47,947 bases of DNA, taken from positions 1-47,947 of the forward strand of contig JANNBC010000033.1 in assembly GCA_031385045.1 (NCBI GenBank), in the 5' to 3' direction. The position numbers and the translations under genes are program-made. Position 1 is the first letter of the stretch. Each line of letters begins with the position of its first letter. Under the pieces are notes generated by a model. That model worked only from the letters and a program-made list of their open reading frames with translations, did no database searches and was not told where the DNA came from. This stretch comes from a bacterium. GTDB taxonomy: Bacteria; Bdellovibrionota_C; UBA2361; CALJRW01. Of the stretch, positions 5,780 to 47,947 are shown in pieces.

Positions 5780-5807
5780 TAAAGTAATCCATTTCCTTCG
5801 ACGAATG
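5780..5807 (+). promoter_or_regulatory. Possible sigma-28-type promoter of the giant adhesin
   Basis: TAAAG-N15-GACGAATG; weaker -10 match; would imply translation from the ATG at 5826. Confidence 0.3.
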
Positions 5808-24805: not shown

Positions 24806-27800
24806 ATGCCTCAATCTTTAAGTTTTATTGCTAAACTTATTTCTCAGACTGTCTCAGTGATCTTTGGGCAAATTTCTTGGAATCCACCTAGCTGGTTAAA
24901 ACTTCTGGTCAAACCATTCCGTCGATTGGCAGAATATGATCACGCGCTTTATCTTGAGTCAAAATTAAAATTTTATTTATCAAAGTTATTCCTATTAGTA
25001 CTCTTAATCGCAGTAAGTTATCTTGTGAACTGGTATTTACATTTACCTGAGCCAGAATATACCTCGCTCCAAGTTATGGAAATTACACCAACGAATCTGG
25101 AACCTGGGAGTACCCCTAATCCGCTCTCAATAATTTTTGACACTTCGGCTGCTAAGATCGATTTGATTGGAAAAGAATTAAATAGTGAAATCATAGTGAA
25201 TCCACAAGTAGCTGGAAAATGGTTCTGGCGCAGTGATCGTAATTTAGTTTTTGAACCATTTACTGATTGGAAGACAGGCATTACTTATCAAGTAAAGCTT
25301 TCTCCAAAATTATTTACAAAAAACATTCTTCTTAAAGAATATCGCTTTGCATTTACGACGCCTAAAATTAATGGTTCGTTAGCTAAAGCTGAGTTTTATG
25401 AAGATCCCTTAGATCAAAAGCTAAAACAAGCTGTCGCCTCATTCAAATTTTCGCATCAGCTTGATAAATCAAGTTTTGAGAAGCACGTAACAGTCCAAGT
25501 TAAAGAAAAAAACAGTAAGGATTATTCTGCTCCTTTAGGATTTAAGGTCCTATTTAATGAGCGTGGGAATGAAGCCTATGTTCGATCGGAATCCTTGGCT
25601 ATTCCTAATCGTGATTCTGAAATTAGAGTTGTGATTACTCCCGGTGTTCAAAGTTTTTTAACTGGTGCCGGAACAGTGAATGAGTATCAAGCTTATGTTA
25701 ACGTGCCAGGTGCAGATAATTATTTTAAGATTCAAGAAGTTGAAGAACGAATAGTTTCTAATCCAGTAAATCATTTAGCTGAGCGATTTTTAATTATCTC
25801 TACTACCGCTCCAGCCAAATCTGCAGATTTATTTGAGGGTCTTTCTGTCTCAATTGTTGAGCCAAAAATCCGAGATGAGGAGTCTGGTTATTCTAATCCA
25901 GAGTGTTGGGACTCTCCCGCTGAAATACCAGGTCAAGTAATTGCTAAGTCCGAACAGCTGACGTTGACTGATTTATCTGATATTCAAAACCCGCTTTTAC
26001 ATTCTTTTAAATTTCAAGCTGACCCTGAAAAATGTTTATTAGTTAAAATTAAAGCTGGAACTCCATCACTGTCTGGCTTCGCCTTAAGCCAAGATAAATC
26101 TTACGCCCTGGAAACAAGTGCCTATCAGCGTGGAATTGAGATCTTGCATCAGGGATCTTTGTTGGCAGTTAGTGGTTCAAAAAAATTATCAATTTTAGGT
26201 CGCAATCAGCAAGCAGTTAAGTTTAAAATTCACCAAATCTTTCCGGACGCCATTAATCATTTACTAACACAAACCTCTGCTAACGGTAATTTTTCTTTAC
26301 CAGAATTTGAAAACTATAATTTTGGTCCAGAAAATATCTCTGAGGTTTTTAGTCAAATCAGTAGTTTTTCTAGTGCTGCCCCAGGTTTGCCACAATATAC
26401 AAATCTTGATTTTACTAACTTTGTAAATTCTCCCAAGGGCTATCGAGGCTTATTTTATTTAACTGCAACTGGCTATGATCAAGATACTCAGACTGAAACC
26501 GAGGGGTTTGATCAACGACTAATTTTAGTAACTGATTTAGGGATTATTGTTAAAACAGATCAAGCTAAAAATAGATCTGTCTTTGTCATGTCTTTTAGCC
26601 AGAATTCCGGAGTACCAAATGCTAAAATTAAAGTTTTAGGTAAGAATGGAGTCGCTATCTTTGAGGGCTTAACCGATATTAATGGACGAGTTGATTTACC
26701 ATTATTAAATGAACTGCAATATGACAAAACTGCTACGGCAATACTTGCCCAAGTTGGCGAGGATTTAAGCTTCATTCCTTGGAGTCGTTATGATCGACGC
26801 CTTAATTTCTCAAGATTTGATGTCGGAGGTCTATACACTAATGATTTGGCAAAATCACTTTCCGCCTATTTATTTAATGATCGCGGAATTTATCGACCGG
26901 GCGAGAGCGTTGAGTTTGGTTTGATTGTTAAAAATCAAGATTGGACTCCTATAGCGAAGCTTCCCTTAGAGCTAAGTATTATCAGTCCAACCGGTCGGCA
27001 AATTTTTGCAAAAAAATTAAATTTTTCAGAATCTGGATTTGAAAATTATAATTATCAAATATCAGAAGAAGCAAGCTTAGGGTTTTATGAACTTAATGTA
27101 ACCTTAATTGACGATCAGAAAAAAACTAGGACTGTCCTTGGTACTAGTACCTTTAAAGTTGATGAGTTTTTACCTGATCGCTTAAAGATTAAGGCTGAAT
27201 TTAATACGGAACAAAAAGCTGGTTGGATTAGCCCCAATAGTCTAAAGACTAACGTAAATTTAAGTAATTTATTTGGAACAGCTGCTGCTGGTAATAAAGT
27301 TAAAGCTAGTATTGGTTTATATCCAGGCCTGCCAGATTTTTCAAATTACCCAGGATTTATCTTCTCAGATCCACTGGAAACAAAAAAATCTTTTAATCAG
27401 GAATTAGGAGAGCAACTTTCTGATTTAGAAGGAAATGTAATCTTTGACTTGCAGTTACAAAAATTTGATCAAGGTAATTTCTTTTTACGTTTTGCTGTGG
27501 AAGGATTTGAAAAAGAAGGTGGGCGATCTGTTGGTACAACTCTTGGCAGTATTATTTCTCCATTAGATTATTTAGTGGGTTGGAAGCCACAAACAGATTT
27601 TAATTTTATCAAATTAAACGCCAAGGCTTCTGCTAAAATCTTAGCCGTAAATCATGATTTAGAAAAAATTGCGCTTACAAATCTTAAGTTACAGCGTGTT
27701 AAGACAGAATATGTCTCAGTTCTTGCTAAACAGCCTAATGGCAACCTGGCCTATACCGCAGTTAAAAAACAAATTCCCCTAGAGACAAAAGAGCTTAGTT

Positions 27801-30565
27801 TAGAGGCGCTGGAAAATGAAATTTTTCTAAATACTAAAGAGGCTGGAGAATTTGAATATATCATAACTAATGTTGACGGATTAAATTTAGCTAAAATTAA
27901 ATATTATGTAAGAGGGATTGGAAATGTTTCTAGAGAGCTAGAGCGCAATGCTGAACTAAAAATAGATTTATCTAAAAAAGATTATAATAACTTAGAAGAG
28001 ATTGAAATCAGTATTCAGTCTCCTTATACTGGCACAGGCTTAATTACAATTGAGCGAGATAAAGTGTATGCCACAAAATGGTTTAATACCACTTCAACTT
28101 CAAGCATTCAAAAGATTATGGTACCAGAAGATTTGGAAGGTAATGCTTATGTGAATGTGGTCTTTTTGCGAGGACTAGATTCTGAAGAAATATTTATGAA
28201 TCCTTTAAGCTATGGGGTTGCTCCTTTTAGTGTTAGTCGAGGCAAGCACACTGCAAATTTAAAATTGACAGCAAGTTCCAAAATCCAATCTGGAGAAACT
28301 GTCGAAATTAACTTAGAGTCTACTGAGCCAGTTCGGGCGGTAGTCTTTGCAGTCGATGAGGGAATTCATCAAGTTGCCAGATACAAACAGCCAGATCCCT
28401 TATCACATTTTTATCAGAAGAAAGCTCTAGAGGTTGTCACTGAACAAATTATTGATTTACTATTACCCGAATTTGAAATTTCTGAGAAAGTTTCCGCTGC
28501 CGGAGGAGATGGAGATAGTTTGCTTGGAAAGTTTAAAAATCCATTTAAGCGCAAAACCCAACCACCAGTAGTCTTTTGGTCCGGAATTCAAGATCTATCA
28601 GGAACTCAGAAATTTAAATTTAAAATCCCAGATTACTTTAACGGTAACTTAAAAATTTATGCTGTCGCTGTTAATAATTCCAGAATTGGAATAGCAAAAG
28701 CAGATACGCTTGTTCAAAATGATTTAGTCTTACAACCAACTGCGCCACTAGCGGTCGCTCCAGGAGATACTTTCTTAGTTAGTACAACAGTTGCCAATAC
28801 TCAGAAGATAGAAACTGATGTCCGAGTTAGTCTGAGGATTGATCAGCGTTTATTGGCGAGCTCCCCTTTAATTAAAGAGTTAAAACTATTGCCAGGTGCC
28901 GAAGAGCTTGTTGAATTTGAGTTAAAAGCTGCCGAGTTTTTGGGCGCTGCTGATTTGAAATTTTTAGCTGAAGCAACGAACACCAAAGCAGAATCGACTT
29001 TAAGTCTTGCCGTGCGCCCAGCAATTAGCCAGCAGACCACCTTAGATGCAGGAATTAAAGCAACTGGTAATGAGCAAGAATTAATTTCTTGGAATAAAGA
29101 ATACTATCCTCAAGAATTTAGTCGTACTTTAGCAGTTTCCAGTGGTCCATTAGCTTGGGGCTTAGGTCTTGGAAAGTATTTAGAGGATTATCCGTATGGT
29201 TGCACGGAGCAATTAGTTAGCCAAGGAATAGCCAAGTTTTCTTTAGCTAAAAATAATGCTGAGAAACTAGTTGCTCAAAAGTTTTTAACAGATGTTTTTA
29301 ATTTACTTACCGCTAGACAAAACAATGATGGCTCACTGTCATTATGGCCACAGTCTTCCTTTACTAGCGAGGCAATTCTACCAACGATTCATGCTGCAAG
29401 ATTAGCCTTAGAGGCCAAGCAGGCAGGATATCGTGTCCCAGAATTATTTGTCACAGAAATAAATTATTTCTTAAAGAATCTAGCTGCTAGTAGTGAGCTA
29501 GATGATCAATCATTAGTGCATCGGGCTTATGCTAGCTATGTTCTAGTGCGTTCAGGAATGATAGTCGGGAATTATTTAACTGCCTTAAAAGAAGATTTAA
29601 GCAATGCCAAGCCTGCGAGTTGGTCACTAGCTTTAACTAAACTATTTATGGCAGCAGCCTATCAAGTACAAATGCAAGAACAAGAGGGTGCTCTGCTATT
29701 AAAAGAAGTGCCTCAGGAATTAAAGTCTACCAAAGAAATCTCTTGGCCATACTATCTCTCAGATTTAGCATATCGCGGATTTTATTTGGATTTAGTTGCT
29801 AGGCATTTCCCTGATCTAGCTCAGCAGATTCCTAATAAATATTGGGAAGATGTTTTAGCACAGTTAAAAAACTCTAACTATAATACCTTTTCCTCCGGGA
29901 CAATGATTCTGGCACTTAAGAGTAGCTCTCAGAATGCTCAGATTGTTAATAATCTTACTGTTTCCTACTCAAGTAATGGGAAAGATTATCAGGATTTAAT
30001 TCTGCAAGGCGATCTTGTTAAGACAGTGGATCTCCCTTGGGATGCTAAGCAGGTACGCCTAGTTGGTGCCAAAGATCAGCGTTACTTTTATCAAACGAGC
30101 ACTGCTGGTTTTGAGAAAAATTTTAGTAAGTTAAGAGAATCACAAGGGTTAGAGGTTTTTAAAGAATATCTTAATTCTGCTGGCAATCAAGTTAGCAGTT
30201 CGTTGCAGGGCGAGGATCTTTACGTCCACCTAACTTTTAGATCTTTACCGGGAAGGTCAGCAAACCAAATGGTGGTTGTCGATCTATTACCTGCTGGGCT
30301 TGAGCTGGCTGGTGGAACTCCACAGCTCGCTACTGGCATAGCAATCGGTCTGGCTCCAAGTAATTGGCTACCAACTTTTTATGAAGGACGGGAAGATCGT
30401 GTAATTCTTTATGGTAGTTTTGGCGAAAACTTGAAGCATTATATCTACAAGGTAAAAGCTGCTAGCAGTGGTAAGTTTGTCGTGCCCGGAACTCTTGTTC
30501 AAGATATGTATGATCTAAAAAGATTTGCTAAGAGTAGCACTACTGAAATTAGCGTTAGTAAATAA
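24806..30565 (+). CDS. yfhM: Bacterial alpha-2-macroglobulin (YfhM family)
   Basis: 1919 aa; DRGIYRPGESV, VDEFLPDR, AVDEGI, thioester YPYGCTEQ and VVDLLPAGLE; followed by pbpC. Confidence 0.95.
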   Translation: MPQSLSFIAKLISQTVSVIFGQISWNPPSWLKLLVKPFRRLAEYDHALYLESKLKFYLSKLFLLVLLIAVSYLVNWYLHLPEPEYTSLQVMEITPTNLEPGSTPNPLSIIFDTSAAKIDLIGKELNSEIIVNPQVAGKWFWRSDRNLVFEPFTDWKTGITYQVKLSPKLFTKNILLKEYRFAFTTPKINGSLAKAEFYEDPLDQKLKQAVASFKFSHQLDKSSFEKHVTVQVKEKNSKDYSAPLGFKVLFNERGNEAYVRSESLAIPNRDSEIRVVITPGVQSFLTGAGTVNEYQAYVNVPGADNYFKIQEVEERIVSNPVNHLAERFLIISTTAPAKSADLFEGLSVSIVEPKIRDEESGYSNPECWDSPAEIPGQVIAKSEQLTLTDLSDIQNPLLHSFKFQADPEKCLLVKIKAGTPSLSGFALSQDKSYALETSAYQRGIEILHQGSLLAVSGSKKLSILGRNQQAVKFKIHQIFPDAINHLLTQTSANGNFSLPEFENYNFGPENISEVFSQISSFSSAAPGLPQYTNLDFTNFVNSPKGYRGLFYLTATGYDQDTQTETEGFDQRLILVTDLGIIVKTDQAKNRSVFVMSFSQNSGVPNAKIKVLGKNGVAIFEGLTDINGRVDLPLLNELQYDKTATAILAQVGEDLSFIPWSRYDRRLNFSRFDVGGLYTNDLAKSLSAYLFNDRGIYRPGESVEFGLIVKNQDWTPIAKLPLELSIISPTGRQIFAKKLNFSESGFENYNYQISEEASLGFYELNVTLIDDQKKTRTVLGTSTFKVDEFLPDRLKIKAEFNTEQKAGWISPNSLKTNVNLSNLFGTAAAGNKVKASIGLYPGLPDFSNYPGFIFSDPLETKKSFNQELGEQLSDLEGNVIFDLQLQKFDQGNFFLRFAVEGFEKEGGRSVGTTLGSIISPLDYLVGWKPQTDFNFIKLNAKASAKILAVNHDLEKIALTNLKLQRVKTEYVSVLAKQPNGNLAYTAVKKQIPLETKELSLEALENEIFLNTKEAGEFEYIITNVDGLNLAKIKYYVRGIGNVSRELERNAELKIDLSKKDYNNLEEIEISIQSPYTGTGLITIERDKVYATKWFNTTSTSSIQKIMVPEDLEGNAYVNVVFLRGLDSEEIFMNPLSYGVAPFSVSRGKHTANLKLTASSKIQSGETVEINLESTEPVRAVVFAVDEGIHQVARYKQPDPLSHFYQKKALEVVTEQIIDLLLPEFEISEKVSAAGGDGDSLLGKFKNPFKRKTQPPVVFWSGIQDLSGTQKFKFKIPDYFNGNLKIYAVAVNNSRIGIAKADTLVQNDLVLQPTAPLAVAPGDTFLVSTTVANTQKIETDVRVSLRIDQRLLASSPLIKELKLLPGAEELVEFELKAAEFLGAADLKFLAEATNTKAESTLSLAVRPAISQQTTLDAGIKATGNEQELISWNKEYYPQEFSRTLAVSSGPLAWGLGLGKYLEDYPYGCTEQLVSQGIAKFSLAKNNAEKLVAQKFLTDVFNLLTARQNNDGSLSLWPQSSFTSEAILPTIHAARLALEAKQAGYRVPELFVTEINYFLKNLAASSELDDQSLVHRAYASYVLVRSGMIVGNYLTALKEDLSNAKPASWSLALTKLFMAAAYQVQMQEQEGALLLKEVPQELKSTKEISWPYYLSDLAYRGFYLDLVARHFPDLAQQIPNKYWEDVLAQLKNSNYNTFSSGTMILALKSSSQNAQIVNNLTVSYSSNGKDYQDLILQGDLVKTVDLPWDAKQVRLVGAKDQRYFYQTSTAGFEKNFSKLRESQGLEVFKEYLNSAGNQVSSSLQGEDLYVHLTFRSLPGRSANQMVVVDLLPAGLELAGGTPQLATGIAIGLAPSNWLPTFYEGREDRVILYGSFGENLKHYIYKVKAASSGKFVVPGTLVQDMYDLKRFAKSSTTEISVSK

Positions 30566-30571
30566 CTGTAA

Positions 30572-32857
30572 GTGATCATGAGGAGTTACTATCACTGGGT
30601 AAGAAATATTATTATATTATTATTAATGATATTTCTGATTGCTAAGTGTAGTCGTTATTTATTACCTAATAATCTATTAGTTAATCGCGGGGGTTTTTCT
30701 CAAGCTGTTTATAGTAAAGAATCAGAATTGTTAAGGCTGACATTAAGCTCAGATGAAAAGTATCGACTTTTTGTGCCAATCAAAGATATTTCCGCTAACT
30801 TTATTAAGACTATTTTACTACAAGAAGATCAATACTTTTATTATCATTTGGGATTTAACCCAATTGGTATATTAAGAGGTGCTTGGTTAACTTATCTTCG
30901 TGGACAACGTACTGGCGGATCTACCATTAGCATGCAATTAGCGCGGATCCGCTTTGGGTTAAATAGTCGAACTGCTATTGGTAAAGTAAATCAGATTATT
31001 TGGAGTATTGGTTTAGAATTAATATATTCTAAAGAGCAATTACTAGAAGCATATTTAAATCTAATTCCTTTTGGTGGAAATATCGAAGGCATTGGTGCTG
31101 CTAGTTTAATTTATCTTAAGAAAAAACCAAGTGCTCTCTCTCTAGCTGAAGGTTATTTGCTAGCATCTATCCCTAAAAGTCCTGTGGCTCGTAATCCACG
31201 TAAATTTCGTCAACGTTTAACTGAGGTAAGTAGTGAATTACTACTTCGTAAATCTAATTCTCCATTGTCTGTCTCTGATCTAGAGCAAGTCCAGCTTGCT
31301 GGACGAACTGAAGATTTGCCAAAGCGGGCACTTCATTTAGTGCAGAGACTAACCGCCGAAAATCCTTTTAAGTCAGAAATTACGACAAGCCTGTCATTAG
31401 ATATTCAACAATCAGTGGAAGAGCAAATTTCTAACTTTACCCAAAAGAATCATTCGCTGGGAATTAATAATGCTACGGCGATTCTAACTGATTGCAATAA
31501 TATGGAGGTGAAAGCATATGTTGCTTCGGCAGATTTTTGGAATAATAAAATTTTAGGACAAGTCGATGGGCTAACTGCTCGGCGTTCTCCAGGATCTGTT
31601 TTAAAGCCAATGATCTATGCCTTAGCATTAGAGCATGGAATTATTCACCCCAGTTCAATTTTAAAAGATTCATTTTTATCTAGAGCCTCATATAATCCAG
31701 AAAATTATGAACGAGACTTTGTTGGGCCAATTTCAGCGACAGCAGCTCTCGTGCGAAGTCGTAATCTGCCAGCAGTTAAATTATTAAATAGTCTTACTCC
31801 AGAAGTTTACTTAGATTTTCTAAAAGCAGCTGGGATTAAACCACTGCAAACTGTTGATCATTATGGTTTAGCACTGGCCCTTGGAGGTGTTGAAGTAAAA
31901 CCAGAGGATGTCAGCAAGCTCTACTGTATGTTAGCAAATTCAGGAGTTATTAAAGACTTAAAATATCTTCCCTCCCAAGAAAGTGAAGCTAAGCAGTTAC
32001 TTTCTCCAGAAGCGAGTTTTTTAGTACGAGAAATGCTAAAAACTAATGAGACAAATACTTTTTCTCAACATAGCTCACCACGGGTGAAGGTAGCTTGGAA
32101 AACAGGAACTAGTTTTGGTTTTAAAGATGCTTGGACTGCTGGTCTAATTGGCAATTATGCTTTGGTTGTTTGGGTCGGGAATTTTGATGGTACCCCTAAT
32201 CCAGCATTTTTAGGAAGAGAAACTGCTGCCGTATTATTTTTTAGAATTTTTGATTCGATTATTTCTAAGTTAAAGATTGCGGAGAGACAGGTGGCTAATT
32301 TAAATGTCCGTCAAGTTAAAGTCTGTGCAACTTCTGGAGAATTGCCTGGGCCAAATTGTCATCATTTTAATAGTTCTTGGTTTATTCCAGGAGTTAGTCC
32401 TATTCAGACCTGTCAGGTTCATCGTAAATTTAGAATTGATCCCAAAACTAAACTTGCTAGTTGTAATTTTGATAACCCGGACTTGATTGAGCAAGAATAT
32501 GAGATCTGGGATTCTGATATTCAGGAGGTCTTTCGAAATGCTGGTATAAACTTAAAGCCTGCCCCTGATTTTGAAGCGGATTGTAGCCTGAGTGCATTTA
32601 CTGCCGGGAGCCCAGTGATTACCTCTCCTCAAGAAACACTAATTTATCGCTTGGAAAAAGCAAGGAAAGAGATTCCCTTTACTGTTACCACAGGAGGTGA
32701 GTCTCGGCAGGTGACTTGGTTTTTAAATGATGATTTTTTAGCACAAGGAGGTTCAAGCGAAACATTTTTTTGGCAGGCAATCCCTGGTAAGCACTTAATT
32801 CGTGTTGTTGATGATCATGGCCGATCGAGCTCAGTATTAATTAACGTTATTAGTTAA
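30572..32857 (+). CDS. pbpC: Penicillin-binding protein 1C
   Basis: Transglycosylase EDQYFYYHLGFNP and GGSTISMQLAR; transpeptidase SVLK, SRN and KTGTS; C-terminal BiPBP_C-like domain; 6 nt after yfhM. Confidence 0.95.
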   Translation: MIMRSYYHWVRNIIILLLMIFLIAKCSRYLLPNNLLVNRGGFSQAVYSKESELLRLTLSSDEKYRLFVPIKDISANFIKTILLQEDQYFYYHLGFNPIGILRGAWLTYLRGQRTGGSTISMQLARIRFGLNSRTAIGKVNQIIWSIGLELIYSKEQLLEAYLNLIPFGGNIEGIGAASLIYLKKKPSALSLAEGYLLASIPKSPVARNPRKFRQRLTEVSSELLLRKSNSPLSVSDLEQVQLAGRTEDLPKRALHLVQRLTAENPFKSEITTSLSLDIQQSVEEQISNFTQKNHSLGINNATAILTDCNNMEVKAYVASADFWNNKILGQVDGLTARRSPGSVLKPMIYALALEHGIIHPSSILKDSFLSRASYNPENYERDFVGPISATAALVRSRNLPAVKLLNSLTPEVYLDFLKAAGIKPLQTVDHYGLALALGGVEVKPEDVSKLYCMLANSGVIKDLKYLPSQESEAKQLLSPEASFLVREMLKTNETNTFSQHSSPRVKVAWKTGTSFGFKDAWTAGLIGNYALVVWVGNFDGTPNPAFLGRETAAVLFFRIFDSIISKLKIAERQVANLNVRQVKVCATSGELPGPNCHHFNSSWFIPGVSPIQTCQVHRKFRIDPKTKLASCNFDNPDLIEQEYEIWDSDIQEVFRNAGINLKPAPDFEADCSLSAFTAGSPVITSPQETLIYRLEKARKEIPFTVTTGGESRQVTWFLNDDFLAQGGSSETFFWQAIPGKHLIRVVDDHGRSSSVLINVIS

Positions 32858-39757: not shown

Positions 39758-40285
39758 ATGAAATTCAAAAATAAAGCTTTTACACTTGTTGAGTTACTAG
39801 TCACAGTAGCCTTAGTTGGAATTTTAAGTGCGATGGCCTTAGCTCAATTTCAAACCTATCGTGCCAAGGCTAATGACTCTGTTGCTTTGGGGCAATTAGT
39901 AAATGTTAGAACTGCAGTAGAAGCTCAGTTTATTTCAAATATGAATCTAACTGGCACAACAATTTTTGGTGGTGATGGGTCTGTGGTTACTCTCTCTGGA
40001 AGCGTTACTTCACTTCCAGGATATAGAGACGAGCCGCATGTTGCGATTTGGCTTCATGTTGGCCCGGGCTTACATTTTGGTGGAACTCCTGGAATACGCG
40101 GTAGTTACTCAATTTGGGCAGCTCATTGTCTAGGGACAATTACAAGTAATAATTCTGGAAATACTGTCATGTTAACTTACGAAACTAATAATATTAGCAT
40201 GACTTCTGGCTCAGTGCGTAAAGTTGGTGCTGGTGGATTTATCAAAGGATCGGAAATGTTCTGTCCTACCGAGGACTTTTATTAG
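39758..40285 (+). CDS. Type IV pilin-like protein (prepilin N-methylation site)
   Basis: MKFKNKA|FTLVELLVTVALVGILSAMAL (class III signal, E+5, Ala instead of Gly at -1); YRAKA; C-terminal Cys pair. Confidence 0.88.
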   Translation: MKFKNKAFTLVELLVTVALVGILSAMALAQFQTYRAKANDSVALGQLVNVRTAVEAQFISNMNLTGTTIFGGDGSVVTLSGSVTSLPGYRDEPHVAIWLHVGPGLHFGGTPGIRGSYSIWAAHCLGTITSNNSGNTVMLTYETNNISMTSGSVRKVGAGGFIKGSEMFCPTEDFY

Positions 40286-40291
40286 GGCAGA

Positions 40292-41371
40292 ATGCAAATT
40301 AAAAGAAATTTTTTATTTCTTATTTTATGTAGCTTTTTTTTGCCAAGCAATCTTTTTGCAGATGAGCAAATTAAAATTGGTGTTTCTGTAGCACTAACTG
40401 GGAATGCCAGTACCTATGGCACGGATATTAAAAATTCCATTATTTTTGCCAATAAAGTTCTAGCAGGCAGTAAATACAAACTAATTATTGAAGATGACAT
40501 GTGTGATGGTAAGACTGCTGTCAATGTGGCACGAAAATTAATAGATATTGATCATGTCAAATATGTCTTAGGATTTGCCTGTAGTAGCTCTTTACTAGCA
40601 ACTGCAAATTTATATAATCAGGCAAAGGTTTTAGTCATAAGTTCCAGTGCCTCCTCTTCCGAAATATCTCAAGCTGGAGATTATATCTTTAGAACAGTCC
40701 CGAGTAATGATGCTATTGGAAAACTATTATTTGATTATGTGCAATCGCGGCACAAGACCTTTGGTGTAATTAGTGAAGAGACAGATTTCTCACAAAGTTT
40801 ATTACAGTCATTTACTAAAAATAACTCGCCTCAAATAATTAATATTTTTTCAGAAAATTTTAATACTAAAGAATTTGATTACAAGAGCTTAATCTTGCGA
40901 CTTAAGTCTAAGGGGATTGAGGGATTATTAATTAATTCTCAGACCGAAGCTACTTTTTTGCTAGCACTAAAAGCTTTAAAAGAAATGAAAATAAATATTC
41001 CTGTCTATGGAGCATATATGCCAGGCAGTGCTACTTTTAGAGCTAATGCTGGAATCTTGGCTGAAGGCTTAATTTTTGCTGATCGACCAACAGCTAAAGA
41101 TGTTTTTAGTCCTAAAGGAATTGATTTGCTTCATAGCTTTAATCAAGAGTATCAGTTAAAGGGTTGGGAGATTGTGTTTGCCTCTACTTGGGAAGCATTC
41201 CAAGCATTGCATTTAGCAATCACAAGCGGGCAGGAGCCACGTGAGTATTTGTATACGAATAAATTTAAGGGGATCTTTGGAGATTACACTTTTGATGCCA
41301 ATGGAGATATCAAAGGACTTCAGTTCCTACTAAAATCAATTAAGAATGGCCAAGTCTATAATCTAGAATAA
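40292..41371 (+). CDS. LivJ/LivK-type ABC substrate-binding protein (Peripla_BP_6)
   Basis: Signal peptide; IKIG..ALTGNASTYG, IEDDMCD, CSS, GDYIFRTVPS and YTFDANGD. Confidence 0.9.
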   Translation: MQIKRNFLFLILCSFFLPSNLFADEQIKIGVSVALTGNASTYGTDIKNSIIFANKVLAGSKYKLIIEDDMCDGKTAVNVARKLIDIDHVKYVLGFACSSSLLATANLYNQAKVLVISSSASSSEISQAGDYIFRTVPSNDAIGKLLFDYVQSRHKTFGVISEETDFSQSLLQSFTKNNSPQIINIFSENFNTKEFDYKSLILRLKSKGIEGLLINSQTEATFLLALKALKEMKINIPVYGAYMPGSATFRANAGILAEGLIFADRPTAKDVFSPKGIDLLHSFNQEYQLKGWEIVFASTWEAFQALHLAITSGQEPREYLYTNKFKGIFGDYTFDANGDIKGLQFLLKSIKNGQVYNLE

Positions 41372-43033
41372 GATTAACTGATCTGGAATCCTTGCAATCA
41401 TTTGATTAATTCCTTGTTCCTGGTCACTTTGGATATTTTCAGTTGAAACACGCACTGTTTTAGATTCTGAGATTAATTCTTCTTCGCAATATAGATAAGA
41501 CTTAAAAAATATTGGTGGTCGTTTGCCAAAGCGGTCTTCTTTAATTCCTAATTTATTAGCAAATCTTAATTGTGAGCCTGAATCGGAAACTTGCAGTCTC
41601 GTGCGATGAGGAGAGCTAGCTAGGTTTTTAAACTTTTTAGCCACAACAACTTCCAGTTGGCAAGAATTTGTTGTCGAAAGTTGCTTAGCCGCTGGTAGGG
41701 TTAGCTCGCCAATTAAATTACCACTTTGTTGAAACTTTAGTTTTAGACTAAGTGTTTTTATTAGAGGCTCGTTTACGCTTGGCGTATCTAAAGTATTTAA
41801 TGGTTTATTCAAGCAACTACCAAATTTATCTAAGTGATCAGCAACTAGATTCCTACTACATTCTGAAAAATTTTCTGGGGGATCATAGGAAAGATAGGCA
41901 TTCATAATATTGGGAATTTCTGTCTCTGGACAGGACGTTAGGTCAATTCCATTTGAGCCAGTAGAGTCGTCATGAATTGCTGATAAGTTATGAGCTAGTT
42001 CGTGTGCAAAGGTAATAGGAGTTGTTGCTACTGAAGTTAGTTGCGTTAAGGCGAAGGCGTAGGAAGGCGTCGTACAAACAGTACCGACAAATGCTAGGCC
42101 AATTGTTGAAGTGTTAAGCTCCTGTCCAGTAAAAAGATGGTAGGCATTAGCTTCTCCGTAGTAATCTTGAGGTCCTTGAGGAGCTGTAAGCTCACAGCCG
42201 GAGTTAGTAAGTGAACTTTCACCAGTGGTATAATACTGATAATTGCAAAGTCGGTCTACGGCATTATCAATTCCAAAACTTTGCTCAGTAAAGACATTTT
42301 GCTTTACTATGTGAAAGTTAAGACCTAAATCGTTTTCATAAATTACCTCTGCTTCGTTTAAAAAACTAGAGATTACACTATTACTGTCTTCTCCATATAT
42401 TTTGTACCAATAAGAATCAGCATCAATATGCAGAGCAATTGTTTGATATTGCTTTGCTGGGGAGTACACTTGATTAGTTCTTGGACTTGCAAACTGTAGA
42501 TTTGTCCTAATGGGAGCTTCTAGCAATTGATCATTGTGAAAAGCATTTTGTTCATACTTCGTAAATCGATAAGCTCTAGCTGAATTAATGATTGGCGAAG
42601 TTAAGTTGATTTTTATTTTATAAAATCCAGTTTTCCTATTATGAGGATTTAGCGCAGAGAAACTAAGAATTAAATAAGGTGTATGTTTTAGATAAATCAT
42701 TGACGCAGCTAAGGGATGCTCCTTAGACTTCGTTGATACCTTACCTCGAAAAAGCCGATACTTAATTTCCTCGGCACGTTTTGTTCTATTAAGATCGGTA
42801 TAGGTAGCTAATGTTTGAAAATCACGATTGCGGTTAAGCTTAATTCTAATTCTTCCAAATCCAGGAAGTGAGATATTAAATAGATGCTTTGGTGGCTGAG
42901 GCGTATTATTAGTAACTGGAAATAAGTTGTTTAGATTACCAAGGCCTGCAACGCGAGCTTGAAAACTGCTATCGGCAAGCAAGCTTAATGGGGAGCAGAG
43001 AATAAAAAATAAAATCAAAAAGTTTTTTTGCAC
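41363..43033 (-). CDS. Secreted M12B/reprolysin-like zinc metalloprotease
   Basis: Signal peptide and prodomain-like N-terminus; HLFTG..L...TIGLAFVGTVC, AHELAHNLSAIHD (HExxHxxSxxH), Met-turn NIMN and FSECS. Confidence 0.87.
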   Translation of the reverse strand: MQKNFLILFFILCSPLSLLADSSFQARVAGLGNLNNLFPVTNNTPQPPKHLFNISLPGFGRIRIKLNRNRDFQTLATYTDLNRTKRAEEIKYRLFRGKVSTKSKEHPLAASMIYLKHTPYLILSFSALNPHNRKTGFYKIKINLTSPIINSARAYRFTKYEQNAFHNDQLLEAPIRTNLQFASPRTNQVYSPAKQYQTIALHIDADSYWYKIYGEDSNSVISSFLNEAEVIYENDLGLNFHIVKQNVFTEQSFGIDNAVDRLCNYQYYTTGESSLTNSGCELTAPQGPQDYYGEANAYHLFTGQELNTSTIGLAFVGTVCTTPSYAFALTQLTSVATTPITFAHELAHNLSAIHDDSTGSNGIDLTSCPETEIPNIMNAYLSYDPPENFSECSRNLVADHLDKFGSCLNKPLNTLDTPSVNEPLIKTLSLKLKFQQSGNLIGELTLPAAKQLSTTNSCQLEVVVAKKFKNLASSPHRTRLQVSDSGSQLRFANKLGIKEDRFGKRPPIFFKSYLYCEEELISESKTVRVSTENIQSDQEQGINQMIARIPDQLILF

Positions 43034-43354
43034 AAGATATTATTTGAATTTTGGATACGGGAAGATATCACAACTTAGAAAGTTAACGAAAAAATTATTT
43101 TAGCACTTGATTCTAGCTATAAAAGTAAATATTTCTAGCTAGTTAAGTATTATTGGCCAGTCCTAATAATTTCTAAAACCGGAGTTAGTCAGCACATTTT
43201 AGTAATTAATTTAAAATCAATCCTGGAAGCAACTTTCTAAGCATACATTCGATAAATACTAGAAGCCAAAATGAGCTGTCCAATTTCATCAGTTAAAATG
43301 CCAGTTATTAGAATTTAGGACAGTATTTCTAGCCGTTAGTAAAACAGGAAGCAG

Positions 43355-44080
43355 ATGAACGCGACTGATAATAGTGCCACAAAAACCGCTTTTCGCGATA
43401 AGTTAGTTTATGAATATCAAAATTATGCTCGAGCAATTTGTTTTAAAATAATTAATCAATTTAAAATACCACATGAATTCCTGATAGATTTACTTGCCGC
43501 AGCTAATCTTGGATTAGTAGAAGCAGCTAATAAATTTGACCCGAGCTTTGGAGTTGATTTTAAAGCATATGCCTATTTTCGCATTCGTGGCGAGGCAATT
43601 GATTTTTTAAGAAGAAATACAAGTTTAACAACATCGCAATATAAAAGATTAAAAGCTTGGCAAAAGCTAGAGAGTCATGCCCAAGCTACTTATCACCAAA
43701 AATCTCCTCTGGTCTCTGAGGAGTCAGAAGAAGTTCAAATTTCAAAATTACTTAATTTGCTAGCTGAGGGAGTAATTATCTATCAACTCCAAAAAGCCCC
43801 TACGTCCCTAGAACAGTATCTTAAAAATTATAGTAGTGAGCTAGCAAGTGTTAATATGTCAGAAAAAATTTCAGAGTTATTAGAGGTTTTAGATCCTCGC
43901 GAATATAAGTTAATTTATGACTTTTATTTTTTAGATAAAACTTTTGTGGAGATTTCTAGGGAATTAAATAATTTTTCTAAATCGTGGATGTCTCGCTTAC
44001 ATCATCAAGCTTTAGGTAAAATGCGCCAAGCATACCTTGACCAGGCTGTGCCTAAAATTAAGAATATCAGCAATGATTAA
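43355..44080 (+). CDS. FliA/WhiG-like (sigma-28 group) RNA polymerase sigma factor heading the T3SS locus
   Basis: Region 2 DLLAAANLGLVEAANKFDPSFGVDFKAYAYFRIRGEAIDFLR; region 4 LDPRE...YFLDKTFVEIS....SKSWMSRLHHQALGKMR; RBS-like AGGAAG. Confidence 0.88.
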   Translation: MNATDNSATKTAFRDKLVYEYQNYARAICFKIINQFKIPHEFLIDLLAAANLGLVEAANKFDPSFGVDFKAYAYFRIRGEAIDFLRRNTSLTTSQYKRLKAWQKLESHAQATYHQKSPLVSEESEEVQISKLLNLLAEGVIIYQLQKAPTSLEQYLKNYSSELASVNMSEKISELLEVLDPREYKLIYDFYFLDKTFVEISRELNNFSKSWMSRLHHQALGKMRQAYLDQAVPKIKNISND

Positions 44081-44861
44081 TAAATATTGTTTAATCATTT
44101 TTTTACTATTTGCGTCCTGTCAGGAACGAATTATTCATAATTTAACTGAATTAGATGCCAATCGCATTATTACTAAATTGCATCAAGCCAAGATTAAATC
44201 CAATAAAGAAAAGCAAGCAGACGGTTTTTGGTCAATAGCAGTCGCTGAAAGTAAGGTAATTGAAGCTATCCAATTGATTGAAGATTACCGCTTTTTTAAA
44301 AAGCCGGAACCTGCCGAGCAGAAATCAAAACTATTAAGCTCGGAGCAAGAGCAAAAATTGATTTATGAAAGAGCTCTTTCTCAACAATTAGAAACGACAC
44401 TACAAAGTTTATCTGGAGTGTTAGAAGTACATGTTCTTTTTAATATTAATAAAGATCAAGATTTATGGAAGAAAGTAAATCTCAGCAAGAAAAATTCTAC
44501 TGCCGGAGTTTTGTTAATAGTGAATCAGCAATTTGTTTTAACAAGTGACGAGTTAAAGCAATTAGTTAGTGGAGCTTCAGGTATTAACCAAGAACAAATT
44601 AATATAGTCATAAGCTATCCACAGATAACAGAAATGCCCTCGGAAGTGCCTGAGGTTAATTCAACTCCAACACCAGTCCAGAATTTAACTTTAATTAATA
44701 ATTTCTTGGCGCATTCTAAAGCTTTATTTAAACAAGTATTCTCGGAAGATTATTTTTTTATAAGCTTTATCGTAATTTCTCTTCTTAGCTGCGTTTATAC
44801 TACTTACGCGTTAATTCAGAACAAAAAAATTCAAAAATTTAAGAGATCACTAAGAACTTAA
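44073..44861 (+). CDS. sctJ: Type III secretion inner-membrane ring lipoprotein SctJ (YscJ/PrgK family)
   Basis: Start re-called at ATG 44073 (8-nt overlap with the sigma gene). Lipobox FASC; IIHNLTELDANRII..L, EQ...YERALSQQLETTL..LSGVLEVHV, STAGVLL and KQLVSGA..GI; C-terminal TM plus basic tail. At 262 aa it is too short for FliF. Confidence 0.88.
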   Translation: MINKYCLIIFLLFASCQERIIHNLTELDANRIITKLHQAKIKSNKEKQADGFWSIAVAESKVIEAIQLIEDYRFFKKPEPAEQKSKLLSSEQEQKLIYERALSQQLETTLQSLSGVLEVHVLFNINKDQDLWKKVNLSKKNSTAGVLLIVNQQFVLTSDELKQLVSGASGINQEQINIVISYPQITEMPSEVPEVNSTPTPVQNLTLINNFLAHSKALFKQVFSEDYFFISFIVISLLSCVYTTYALIQNKKIQKFKRSLRT

Positions 44862-44922
44862 CTATTTTATTCTCGATATAGATAATAATAATTTCTTAAT
44901 CATTTTATTTTCCAAGGACAAG

Positions 44923-45204
44923 ATGAATATTAATCCAATAGGGCCAAGCCTTGAGCGCTACTTACCTGAAACTGAAAGTGACAATTTCTTTAAACTTGGC
45001 GGTTTGGCGCAAAACATTGCTCGTTATGCAGAAACAGCCGCTAATTATTTAAATGCTGGGGGGCTAGCCAGTCCCTATAACGATCTGTTATCAGCACAGA
45101 CCGAAGCTCAAATGCAATTAATGCAAGTAAGCTTACAGTCAAACCTCTCTCGTACGGAACATGAAACAAGTATGGCGATAGTTAGAAATATTCGAGTAGC
45201 TTAG
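44923..45204 (+). CDS. Probable T3SS needle subunit (SctF/PrgI-like), 93 aa
   Basis: C-terminus LLSAQ-X12-QSN-X10-AIVRNIR has the same spacing as PrgI as I recall it (YQ-X12-QSN-X10-AIIQNFR); RBS AAGGA; lies between sctJ and sctV. Confidence 0.6.
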   Translation: MNINPIGPSLERYLPETESDNFFKLGGLAQNIARYAETAANYLNAGGLASPYNDLLSAQTEAQMQLMQVSLQSNLSRTEHETSMAIVRNIRVA

Positions 45205-45264
45205 TTTTGGTTTGCATGAAGAGTATCTCTGTGCTTTTAGTAAGAATGATGATCAAGGTCTGAT

Positions 45265-47106
45265 ATGAAACAGTTTTTTATACCAATTTTGATTATAATT
45301 CTGTTGCTGGGTCTCTTTATCCCCATACCAAGTGGTCTACTTGATTATTTAGTTATTTTGAATGTCTTGCTGGCAATTGTTTTGCTCTTTAGTGTCTTGT
45401 TAGTAGAGTACCCTACTCAATTAACCACACTGCCTAGTTTTTTACTAATATTAACGCTCTTTAGGTTAGTTACAAATATCTCTACAACAAGACAAATTCT
45501 AGCCGGTGTTGAGCCAGGTAAAATTATTCCTTTAATTGGCGAAGTCGTCATACAAGGAAGTGTTGTTATTGGCTTAGTCATTTTTGGAATCTTAACATTA
45601 GTGCAATTAATTGTTGTTTCCAAGGGGGCGGAGCGCGTTGCTGAAGTGTCCGCTCGTTTTACTTTAGATGCTTTACCTGGGAAGCAAATGTCGATTGATG
45701 CTGATGTTCGTGCCGGTTTAATTGATTTTTCTGAGGCTCGCCTAAAACGACAGGAGACCCAAATTGAATCAAGATTTTATGGCGCTTTAGATGGGGCAAT
45801 GAAATTTATTAAGGGAGATGCCATCGTTGGTATTTTAATAACTTTCGTGAATTTAATTGGAGGTCTCGCTAGTGGGATTTTAGTGCAGGAGTTAAGTCTA
45901 ATTCAAGCAATTAATTATTATAGTTTAATGACAATTGGAGATGGCGTTATCTCGCAAATTCCAGCAATTCTTAATTCTATTGCTGCGGGCATTTTAGTAA
46001 CTCGTGTTGTCGGATTAGAAAAATCCAACTTATCTAATGATCTCACGCAACAATTATTTACTAACCAAGGAGTTAAAATAATAATTATTTTGATTAGTTT
46101 GGTTTTTGCTTGTTTACCAGGAATTCCAAGCCTTCCATTTCTAATGATGGCTGTAATTTTTTTTGGTTTAGCATTAGCTTATCAAAAACCAAAAAAATCT
46201 TTATTGATAAATAGCAATATTGATTCCAAAGTTTATCTTCCAGAACTACTAGTTATTCAACTTTCTAAAATAAATGTTGATCTTGCGCCACAATTATTTG
46301 CCCTACAAATAAAGCATGATTTCTACGATTTGACGGGTTTAGTAATCCCAGCCCCGAAAATTAAAATTGCTGATCAAAGTGCTGATTATCAGTTAATTCT
46401 TCGAGGGGAAGTTTTTCTTTCCAATAACTTTCTAAGTAAGGAACGCACAATTGAAAAACTTAGCTTAGATATTGCCGTCCAGCTTCAAAAATATTCCCTT
46501 GATTTGCTAGATGATCGTACGACCAGAGCCTTGTTAGAGCTTTGGGAGAAGACCGCGCCATACCAAGTAAATTATTTAATACCTGATAAAATCACGATTA
46601 CTAGAATTACAACACTCTTGAAGGACTTAATCTTAGAAGGAGTCTATCCCAAAAATTTTGATCTACTAATTCAAACTGTTGCTGAGCATATAGAGCAGAA
46701 GCCCACAAATTTACAGTTACTTAATTTAATTCGTCAGGCAATGAAATATCAGATTTGTCGCAAGTATTTAAATACCCAAGAGCTTTTGGCAGTGACCCTT
46801 GATCCGCAAATTGATCATTGTTTTTTTCAGGCATCTCAACACGGAAAATCATTTAAAATTGATTTCTTAGAATTAATTATTCTCAAATTACAACAAATTA
46901 GTTTGAATGGACAGGAGGTCGTGCTGGTTTGCTCAATGCCAGTTCGAAGATTTCTTTGGCAATGTTTAAAAGCAAGCGGACTAAATGTGATTGTGCTTGC
47001 CTATGAAGAGATTCTTCCAAGTATTAAAATTAAATCCCTTCTTTGTGTAACTCCAGAAATTCAGCAGTTAGATCCTGTAAATGATTCTAGTCTTCAATTA
47101 ATATGA
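45265..47106 (+). CDS. sctV: Type III secretion major export apparatus protein SctV (FHIPEP family)
   Basis: KGAERVAEVSARFTLDALPGKQMSIDAD, FYGALDGAMKFIKGDAI and TIGDGVISQIP. The QMSID and GAMKF variants are the non-flagellar type (FlhA typically has QMAID and GASKF). Confidence 0.92.
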   Translation: MKQFFIPILIIILLLGLFIPIPSGLLDYLVILNVLLAIVLLFSVLLVEYPTQLTTLPSFLLILTLFRLVTNISTTRQILAGVEPGKIIPLIGEVVIQGSVVIGLVIFGILTLVQLIVVSKGAERVAEVSARFTLDALPGKQMSIDADVRAGLIDFSEARLKRQETQIESRFYGALDGAMKFIKGDAIVGILITFVNLIGGLASGILVQELSLIQAINYYSLMTIGDGVISQIPAILNSIAAGILVTRVVGLEKSNLSNDLTQQLFTNQGVKIIIILISLVFACLPGIPSLPFLMMAVIFFGLALAYQKPKKSLLINSNIDSKVYLPELLVIQLSKINVDLAPQLFALQIKHDFYDLTGLVIPAPKIKIADQSADYQLILRGEVFLSNNFLSKERTIEKLSLDIAVQLQKYSLDLLDDRTTRALLELWEKTAPYQVNYLIPDKITITRITTLLKDLILEGVYPKNFDLLIQTVAEHIEQKPTNLQLLNLIRQAMKYQICRKYLNTQELLAVTLDPQIDHCFFQASQHGKSFKIDFLELIILKLQQISLNGQEVVLVCSMPVRRFLWQCLKASGLNVIVLAYEEILPSIKIKSLLCVTPEIQQLDPVNDSSLQLI

Positions 47107-47648
47107 AAAGTCTGATCCTTTTATTTTTAATTTGTGTAGGTTGCTCGCATCCTCTAGTTTTAAATCCAGTGAGACTCAAGGAGTCAAAGAGGCTAAATTT
47201 ACAAGGACTACTTGCCCTGCGGAGTAAGAATTTAAAAGAAGCACAAGCTAATTTTCAGCTTGCTTATCAACTTGCCCCCAACCCAGAATCATTAGACGGT
47301 TTAGGGATCTGTGCACTTTCACAGCAAAATTATCCTGAAGCCCAGAGACTTTTTATTAAGTCTTATCAAACATCTCAAAATTACTATAACTCTTTGATAA
47401 ATCTAGCATTTTTATATGAGAAGGCAGGCCAACTAGATTTAGCAGATAGGCTCTATCGAAGTTTAATTGATAAATATCCCGAAAATTTTAAGTTACAAAA
47501 CAACTTTTCTGCCTTTCAGTTCGATTATTATAGGCCATCAGAAGTAAGTGATCTGGAGTTTCGCCTCTTACAGGCAAAAAGCTTAAATCCCGATCCTCTG
47601 ATAATAAGAAATTTAACTATGATTAAAGGTTATCGTGAACGAAACTAA
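47103..47648 (+). CDS. TPR-repeat lipoprotein in the T3SS locus (pilotin-like?)
   Basis: Lipobox VGC; about 3 TPR-like helix pairs; 4-nt overlap with sctV. Confidence 0.78.
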   Translation: MKSLILLFLICVGCSHPLVLNPVRLKESKRLNLQGLLALRSKNLKEAQANFQLAYQLAPNPESLDGLGICALSQQNYPEAQRLFIKSYQTSQNYYNSLINLAFLYEKAGQLDLADRLYRSLIDKYPENFKLQNNFSAFQFDYYRPSEVSDLEFRLLQAKSLNPDPLIIRNLTMIKGYRERN

Positions 47649-47947
47649 AAAGAAGCTTAGCCTGCAAGTGATTACTGGTAATAAAATTAAGGCACCTAAC
47701 CTTGAGGCTCAGTTACTCAATCTAAAACCAAAAAATTTGACCAATAAAACGCCAGATTTAGGTGTTTGGTATGAGGAAACTCAAGTAATAAAAATGATGC
47801 TAGCTCAAAATTCTCCAGGACTTTCCAGCTTTATTACTGAGGCCGTAATCAATAAAATGAATCTGGAAGATGCTGATCGCCAAGCCGTAGCTGATTTTAT
47901 TAAATTCTATTTAGAAAGCGATCCGACAATTTTAGATAAAATTTAAC
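47635..47947 (+). CDS. Hypothetical protein of the T3SS operon (runs off the window end)
   Basis: GTG start overlapping the TPR gene; open to the end of the window. Confidence 0.6.

Follow-up and report, generated by a model that had tools for sequence, protein, structure and literature searches.

A deep non-flagellar type III secretion clade with a likely SctF needle gene in the bacterial phylum Bdellovibrionota_C

Introduction

Contig JANNBC010000033.1 of GenBank assembly GCA_031385045.1 (47,947 nucleotides, analysed in its entirety and hereafter called the window; contig C38 in our numbering) comes from a bacterium of the GTDB lineage Bdellovibrionota_C, UBA2361, CALJRW01 and carries at its end a gene cluster that belongs to a T3SS (type III secretion system), here named system B, which according to export-gate phylogenies is a deep non-flagellar (NF) clade of its own, phylum-wide and lying outside FlhA. 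A 93-amino-acid (aa) protein encoded in this cluster is likely, judging by profile comparisons, the SctF needle subunit. We give about even chances to a broader reading, namely that basal T3SSs devoid of their own secretin are not needleless, having a cryptic SctF and a promoter for a dedicated sigma factor common to this phylum and to the T3SS* of Myxococcaceae, that the phylum possesses a second T3SS fused with Tad genes, and that genus g1, to which the source genome belongs, runs both export gates without an ATPase.

Previous works equate T3SS* of Myxococcus with the "long" myxobacterial NF-T3SS, MXAN_2434-2464 (PMC3459982, PMC10433427, PMC12075869), describe the functions of Kil and T3SS* in this organism (PMC12075869, PMC10433427) and confine the joint occurrence of both to Cystobacterineae (PMC12428579). 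In these works T3SS* is called needleless (PMC10433427, PMC12075869), myxobacterial systems are stated to lack or to have lost SctF (PMC3459982), and delivery to prey by T3SS* is treated as an open question (PMC10433427, PMC12075869). As for the host, GTDB took the basal class out of Bdellovibrionota (PMC13200544). Our literature search, with supplements and most subscription papers outside it, found no report of a T3SS in this lineage or of SctF-like genes in Myxococcaceae. The survey set comprised 110 genomes of the phylum, which is uncultured (a search by class gave the identical 110), 73 of them of high quality; genus g1 is represented by the source genome G000 (2.83 Mb, 36% GC, 94.9% complete) and by G035 (95% and 97% complete, respectively).

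Results

Phylogenetic position of system B

Trees of SctV were built from 39 of 158 collected SctV/FlhA sequences, the SctV of the window then being added among them, while the concatenated SctR-S-T-U-V tree encompassed 30 systems and 1314 columns, with approximately unbiased (AU) tests performed on 29 rows after one gappy row was dropped. Branch supports are quick values of the Shimodaira-Hasegawa-like approximate likelihood ratio test (SH-aLRT), the taxa include no chlamydial sequence, and the branches of system B are long. In both kinds of trees all NF systems stand apart from flagellar ones with 99-100% SH-aLRT, and grouping of system B with the phylum's own flagellar export gate is rejected (p-AU 5e-7); trees and AU test together rule out the assignment of this SctV as FlhA, so that the locus is non-flagellar and deep-branching, as the original prediction had proposed. 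System B, the second system of the phylum (system A), Myxococcales and proteobacterial systems form one clade each, the latter with 97-98%. The branching order between them differs: SctV under the LG model places A and B outside the others (90%) while a mixture model leaves this open, and the concatenated tree puts Myxococcales first (93%) and joins A and B without support. Neither grouping of system B with all myxobacterial systems (p-AU 0.059) nor with those of Proteobacteria (p-AU 0.215) is rejected.

The closest relatives of the window's SctV belong to metagenome-assembled genomes labelled Bdellovibrionota, Oligoflexia or Deltaproteobacteria, with 68% identity followed by about 40%. FHIPEP was matched in 110 of 110 phylum genomes, and wherever loci were read three paralogues were distinguished: FlhA, SctV-A and SctV-B, the last being that of the window. 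True FlhA adjoins flhB, fleN, fliA and flg/fli genes. Flagellin was detected in 44 of 47 genomes, the exceptions being G000, G035 and G019; the flagellum is lost in genus g1, where G000 retains an orphan true fliA (C54:124304-125062) with no other flagellar genes found. Matches to flagellin domains are otherwise very numerous per phylum genome, up to 53 in G017. Genome G111 (9.8 Mb; loci L161, L163, L165, L166, L053, L215) has six FlhA/SctV paralogues, including three orphan sctV genes with a tetratricopeptide repeat (TPR) chaperone gene before each.

The 93-aa protein as a needle subunit

The protein search yielded 148 homologues of the 93-aa protein, and its family is present in 104 of 110 phylum genomes (72 of the 73 of high quality), a single copy being the rule with few exceptions. 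The needle-like character ascribed to it in the original prediction is backed by profile, Atlas and HHalign links. The ESM Atlas assigns it to a PF09392 cluster at 0.90, the AlphaFold2 model contains helices 22-45 and 49-92 (predicted local distance difference test 64), and the SctF profile ranks it first among 4283 ORFs (open reading frames) of G000, but with E 0.29. A 119-sequence profile of the family was run on 9644 ORFs from fetched loci, reversed ORFs giving none below E 1. After its own family it finds three identical 72-aa ORFs in Myxococcales genome G124 (E ~1e-8 to 1e-7), which sit among LcrH-like chaperone genes ahead of long-type sctV, as well as, in part of the phylum, a second gene in tandem, and the ORF preceding sctI in "short" myxobacterial loci (E 1e-4 to 5e-4); canonical SctF is reached at E 0.6-1, behind two other weak matches. 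In HHalign the 72-aa and the 93-aa families match at 97%, the best decoy reaching 18%, and the ORF family of short loci matches SctF at 82%. Identity of the 93-aa protein as the inner rod SctI was rejected (HHalign 0.1-0.35%). Several results speak against the needle assignment: direct HHalign of the 93-aa family with canonical SctF gives 48% and 29% (best decoy 18%), no Pfam or NCBIfam family is matched, PDB sequence searches with its profile returned no needle and only chance KMP-11 matches, and the AlphaFold2 model is of low confidence (predicted template modelling score 0.30).

Of 61 Myxococcaceae genomes, 35 contain the 72-aa family, frequently as tandem copies; G116 and G129 have three to four genes of this type. 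The loci of G124, G129 and G116 have the content of long loci (I, J, L, N, Q, RSTU, chaperones, V), M. xanthus not being among them. Tandem near-identical SctF-like genes of 72-73 aa occupy L216:1008-4048, L222:2595-4187 and L223:1900-3044 in Myxococcaceae long loci, and most of them carry their own copy of the promoter-like motif described below. PF09392 is matched by 4 of 26 homologues, the named ones being from Stigmatella, and by 13-32% of members among Atlas neighbours of the family. Its profile also matches chain F of PDB entry 7y6c (E 1.6e-4); the entry names this chain after a co-chaperone, and we take its 43 residues to be the C-terminal helix of the needle. On the strength of these similarities the putative SctF-like proteins of Myxococcaceae long loci challenge the "needleless" label of T3SS*.

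Organization of the loci

The six co-directional ORFs recognized in the original prediction are all present at the positions that it gave (Table 1). The start of sctJ overlaps the sigma stop codon, and its product begins as a lipoprotein (MINKYCL..C16). No flagellar gene family was matched among the 35 window proteins scanned, and the 103-aa product found no family in Pfam and NCBIfam scans. The orthologue of the TPR lipoprotein in G034 matches TIGR02521 with E 1.5e-14, likewise below the cut-off. In G035 the cluster is succeeded by genes of an extracytoplasmic function (ECF) sigma factor and housekeeping proteins; since the orthologue of that sigma factor lies at the end of G000 contig C47, the end of the window cuts off no further T3SS gene and the locus is complete.

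Table 1. Features of the system B cluster in the window
Feature	Position	Strand	Basis
Sigma gene promoter, predicted, two-box	43229..43255	+	16.3 bits, rank 3/2621 upstream regions
System-specific sigma-70-family factor, FliA-related but not FliA	43355..44080	+	Sigma70_r2 + r4, no r3
SctJ inner-ring lipoprotein	44073..44861	+	PF01514 (YscJ_FliF) E 5e-13; TIGR02544 E 3e-23, below NCBIfam cut-off
Weaker promoter-like motif copy ahead of the 93-aa gene	44853..44879	+	10.7 bits, rank 137/2621
Likely needle subunit SctF (93-aa helical hairpin by prediction)	44923..45204	+	profile/HHalign links
SctV export-gate protein, system B	45265..47106	+	FHIPEP E 1e-138; QMSID + GAMKF present; trees
TPR lipoprotein, PilW/Tgl-like, possible pilotin	47103..47648	+	TIGR02521 E 2e-7, below cut-off
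Conserved ~100-aa protein (103 aa) closing the cluster	47635..47946	+	orthologues at same place in relatives

Among the loci read the order of the cluster is kept, and in its usual composition it contains genes for sigma, sctJ, a 75-110-aa ORF, sctQ (PF01052), the 93-aa protein, sctV, the TPR lipoprotein and the 100-aa ORF. System B is split across three loci. The partner locus, on contig C13 in G000, comprises an sctI-like rod gene, an sctP-like gene (named by eye and matching no family), sctRSTU, a histidine kinase and an FlhB-C-like gene; thus sctRSTU, which the original prediction had left to be looked for, are encoded elsewhere in the genome, and SctJ, R, S, T, U and V are all present, SctU without its C-domain. 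The sctL-sctN pair is placed elsewhere in most relatives, while G060 has it in the orientation of the cluster and 7.5 kb away. Two SctN clades were distinguished, one seen only in other orders and one widespread; the latter likely serves system B, because it is the one that adjoins the cluster in G060. The rod gene (C13:21917-22213) belongs to a 98-aa family scoring 92% against SctI in HHalign, and its orthologue in G048 matches PF17001 (E 4e-5). SctU-B goes no further than the NPTH position (5 of 5 genomes), the C-domain being a separate gene: in G000 (C13:15472-19571) sctU terminates at the autocleavage position and the FlhB-C-like gene comes two genes further, behind a PAS/GAF histidine kinase which is 91% identical in G035, far above the neighbouring genes. 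In 3 of 3 aligned proteins the cytoplasmic domain of SctV-B lacks about 50 residues of its middle part, presumably in the SD2 region.

The sigma factor and its putative promoters

The original prediction supposed flagellum-style control by a FliA-like sigma-28 factor; this is not supported, and control by a sigma factor does not distinguish the locus from those of myxobacteria. The window's sigma factor is 26% identical to a flagellar FliA, versus 64% for the orphan fliA product of the same genome, reaches 70 bits with TIGR02479 against a cut-off of 190 and falls outside the FliA clade (99%) with its sister group not resolved; identity and tree position rule it out as FliA. Long myxobacterial loci hold the same sigma type ahead of sctI-sctJ: the class sigma profile finds it with E 4e-34 to 9e-37, as compared with E 6e-21 and 1e-23 for two Myxococcales FliA, and region 4 SKSW-S-R-L-H is common to both. 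In the sigma tree the myxobacterial factor stands beside FliA at 80%, unsupported, and is not joined with those of the class. Additional system-B sigma paralogues reside outside the cluster (G000 C3:6283-6882; L132:13895-14512).

A two-box motif with class consensus GGAAACTT-N12-CCGATTA, with a -10 box of sigma-28 type, was modelled by a matrix for which 26 upstream regions of genera other than g1 served as training set; the seeds had been picked by eye with a prior result in view, so the held-out test is not fully blind. In G000 it precedes the sigma and 93-aa genes (Table 1) and sctI (12.3 bits, rank 57 of 2621), versus 3.6, 3.6 and 8.7 bits for controls, and G035 has the same site ahead of its sigma gene at the same distance. 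The motif scores 20 bits ahead of 3 of 3 tandem copies in L216 and 9-13 bits ahead of three copies in G116. The genome-wide scan was too noisy to name targets of a regulon. We infer that the sigma factor reads the motif.

System A and the Tad operon

The second T3SS of the phylum, system A, is linked to a Tad operon. SctV-A directly follows tadZ-cpaB-tadA-tadB-tadC in 7 of 7 genomes read, and in G009 and G007 the Tad operon continues into a kinase, two FHA proteins, sctJ, an sctQ-like gene and sctRSTU. System A has one operon in common with Tad genes and with genes for Ser/Thr kinases and FHA proteins, a PP2C-like phosphatase and two divergent sigma factors; in G000 this operon occupies C7:7899-22342 and C8:422-10372 (L089, L090), and in L140/L141 and L209/L210 it is contiguous. 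System A loci showed neither a needle nor a rod gene. An 80-aa and a 142-aa gene, paired on C8, are possible counterparts of SctX and SctY. Further Tad-type sets (tadA/B/C, cpaB, tadZ homologues) are located in G000 at C56:77304-82736, C2:156174-158253 and C52:46088-46981.

Each of five genomes has two secretins, which in G000 are one within a type II secretion operon and one PilQ-like, in line with the lack of a dedicated secretin that the original prediction cites for deep-branching Myxococcales T3SSs. Neither the T3SS loci nor the Tad operons read contain a secretin of their own, and no Tad secretin was matched in the G000 genome; system B would borrow one from another system.

Gene loss and selection in genus g1

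FliI/SctN scored above the cut-off in 104 of 110 genomes, whereas G000, G035 and the less complete G042 and G049 gave only ATP-synthase scores; among F1-type ATPases of G000 only AtpA, AtpD and Rho were matched, and no SctN. FliH/SctL and FliN/SctQ domains were detected in every high-quality genome but the two of g1 (71 of 73). Between sctJ and the needle-like gene both the ~75-110-aa ORF and sctQ of relatives are deleted, leaving a 61-bp gap in place of the two ORFs of G048 and G009, with no remnant of sctQ-B. An assembly gap is an unlikely cause of missing sctN, sctL and sctQ, because both g1 genomes are without them and sctQ is deleted in place. The SctQ-like gene of system A is retained on C8 (84% identity between G000 and G035). 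All 14 system-B genes compared between the two species are intact, without stop or frameshift. Median synonymous divergence (dS) is 1.9, and this near-saturation makes the ratios to nonsynonymous divergence (dN) rough; where computable, dN/dS of system-B genes is 0.07-0.39.

Other genes of the window

A Reprolysin-like metalloprotease gene (41363-43033) is divergent from the sigma gene, occurs in the same place in G035 and has paralogues on C52 and C54. Position 5805-12113 encodes a 2102-aa protein with Calx-beta and SdrD-B domains, a likely adhesin, with a 1177-aa antisense ORF inside (7178-10711). The 607-aa product of 1614-3437 ends in a phage-type lysozyme domain (PF00959, E 1e-24), making it a candidate cell-wall-lytic enzyme. 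A pair of genes for alpha-2-macroglobulin and PBP1C (24806-32857) and a type IV pilin-like gene (39758-40285) complete the list.

Discussion

Compared with T3SS*, system B is alike in that no dedicated secretin and, in a weak test, no translocon was found, the same sigma type is adjacent to the ring gene, and the two-box promoter-like motif, SctF-like and SctI genes, a separate FlhB-C-like gene and co-occurrence with Tad recur; a FliO-like gene stands ahead of system-B sctR in G048 (L136:10828-11073; PF04347, E 2e-4), being absent there in G000, and such a gene is reported for Myxococcus T3SSs in PMC12403147. It differs in being a separate clade distributed over three loci, in the shortened SctV and the SctU ending at the NPTH position, in having one needle-like gene (two in some members) rather than tandem copies, in the lack of an LcrH-like chaperone from the cluster, and, for genus g1, in the absence of SctN, SctL and SctQ-B. 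By analogy, system B would work like the predation T3SS of myxobacteria, without being its orthologue. Short myxobacterial systems (MXAN_5643-5654 type) resemble it by an SctF-like ORF directly ahead of sctI-sctJ, with HHalign of 95-97% to the 93-aa family, but form one compact F-I-J-Q-R-S-T-U-V operon, and none of the three that were read (L059, L217, L218) has a sigma gene. Proteobacterial injectisomes (SPI-1/Inv-Mxi, Ysc, Hrp, Rhizobiales) share SctJ, RSTUV, rod and needle homologues and the QMSID/GAMKF signatures of SctV; they differ in having SctC, SctD and a translocon, of which the last two were not matched for system B in weak tests, and make up a clade of their own. They are controlled by AraC-, HilA- or HrpL-type regulators. 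The flagellar T3SS of the phylum has a homologous export gate and a sigma factor to which that of system B is distantly related; it differs by the separate FlhA clade and by its presence in most members but loss in g1.

The explanation that we favour, with slightly better than even confidence, is a split, phylum-wide T3SS with a sigma-driven cryptic needle, a borrowed secretin and a role in predation together with system A, working in g1 without an ATPase. The sigma factor would activate, via the two-box motif, sctI, the needle gene and the gene for itself; SctRSTUV would export rod and needle subunits polymerising on the SctJ ring; and a type II or type IV pilus secretin, recruited by the PilW-like lipoprotein, would let the needle pass the outer membrane. 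In predation system B may then have Tad-linked system A as its partner, much as Kil and T3SS* are paired in Myxococcus, a role inferred from relatedness and the Tad link. In g1, where SctN, SctL and SctQ-B are gone, the machine would run on proton motive force alone, with low output and relaxed selection. A number of results are at odds with this explanation. No dedicated SctC was found in five genomes or in G000 loci; SctD and translocon were not matched in G000, although these searches are weak tests, as control genomes were also silent; in the export-gate tree system B is not the sister of the Myxococcaceae long locus (p-AU 4.5e-4); and neither SctN, SctL nor a FliN-type domain was matched in G000 or G035.

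The last of these absences, together with median dN values of 0.28 in system B, 0.093 in system A and 0.127 in 46 neighbouring genes, bears on whether system B of g1 is an early-stage remnant, devoid of ATPase and sorting platform, with membrane parts drifting to loss, while other phylum members have it functional. The original prediction regarded absence of sctN/R/S/T/U as a mark of such decay, and the outcome is divided: sctN, along with sctL and sctQ-B, is missing, in only these two of 73 high-quality genomes, and sctRSTU are there. The long branch leading to both species (1.7 changes per column), the approximately threefold dN excess over system A and the lost flagellum with its orphan fliA agree with decay, but dN/dS stays well below 1 with dS near saturation, none of the 14 genes is disrupted, the needle-like gene (74%) and sigma (72%) are among the best conserved, and promoter-like motifs persist in both species. 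We consider a remnant unlikely on the whole; system B of g1 may be minimal or starting to decay.

Rather less probable is that A and B constitute one composite secretin-less machine in which B gives the rod and a short periplasmic needle, and A with the Tad pilus gives energy and exit, so that no T3SS needle passes the outer membrane. The absence of needle- or rod-like genes from system A loci and of a cytoplasmic chaperone from B, the single SctN in order members read, the unsupported union of A and B in the concatenated tree, the conservation of system A without any SctN, and a Myxococcus model with Tad tips in place of a needle (PMC12075869) fit this scheme; against it stand the separate SctJ, R, S, T, U and V of each system, the two SctN that G009 carries in addition to FliI, and the unequal evolutionary rates of A and B in g1. 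A classical injectisome directed against eukaryotes, for instance a protist host, would account for needle, rod and ruler-like genes and accords with the unrejected grouping with proteobacterial systems; it is nevertheless very improbable, given the lack of a translocon (0 of 5 genomes, a weak test), SctD and SctC and the sigma factor, promoter motif and FlhB-C gene common with myxobacterial loci.

If the split T3SS with a cryptic needle is correct, the tandem Myxococcaceae copies would form the missing needle of prey lysis. The locus points to specific deletable small genes in Myxococcaceae long-type loci, which makes the "needleless" question testable in a culturable model. Export gates retained without SctN represent a natural case bearing on how dispensable the ATPase is, and the transition from flagellum to injectisome gains two deep NF-T3SS clades, both of a phylum that has hardly been sampled.

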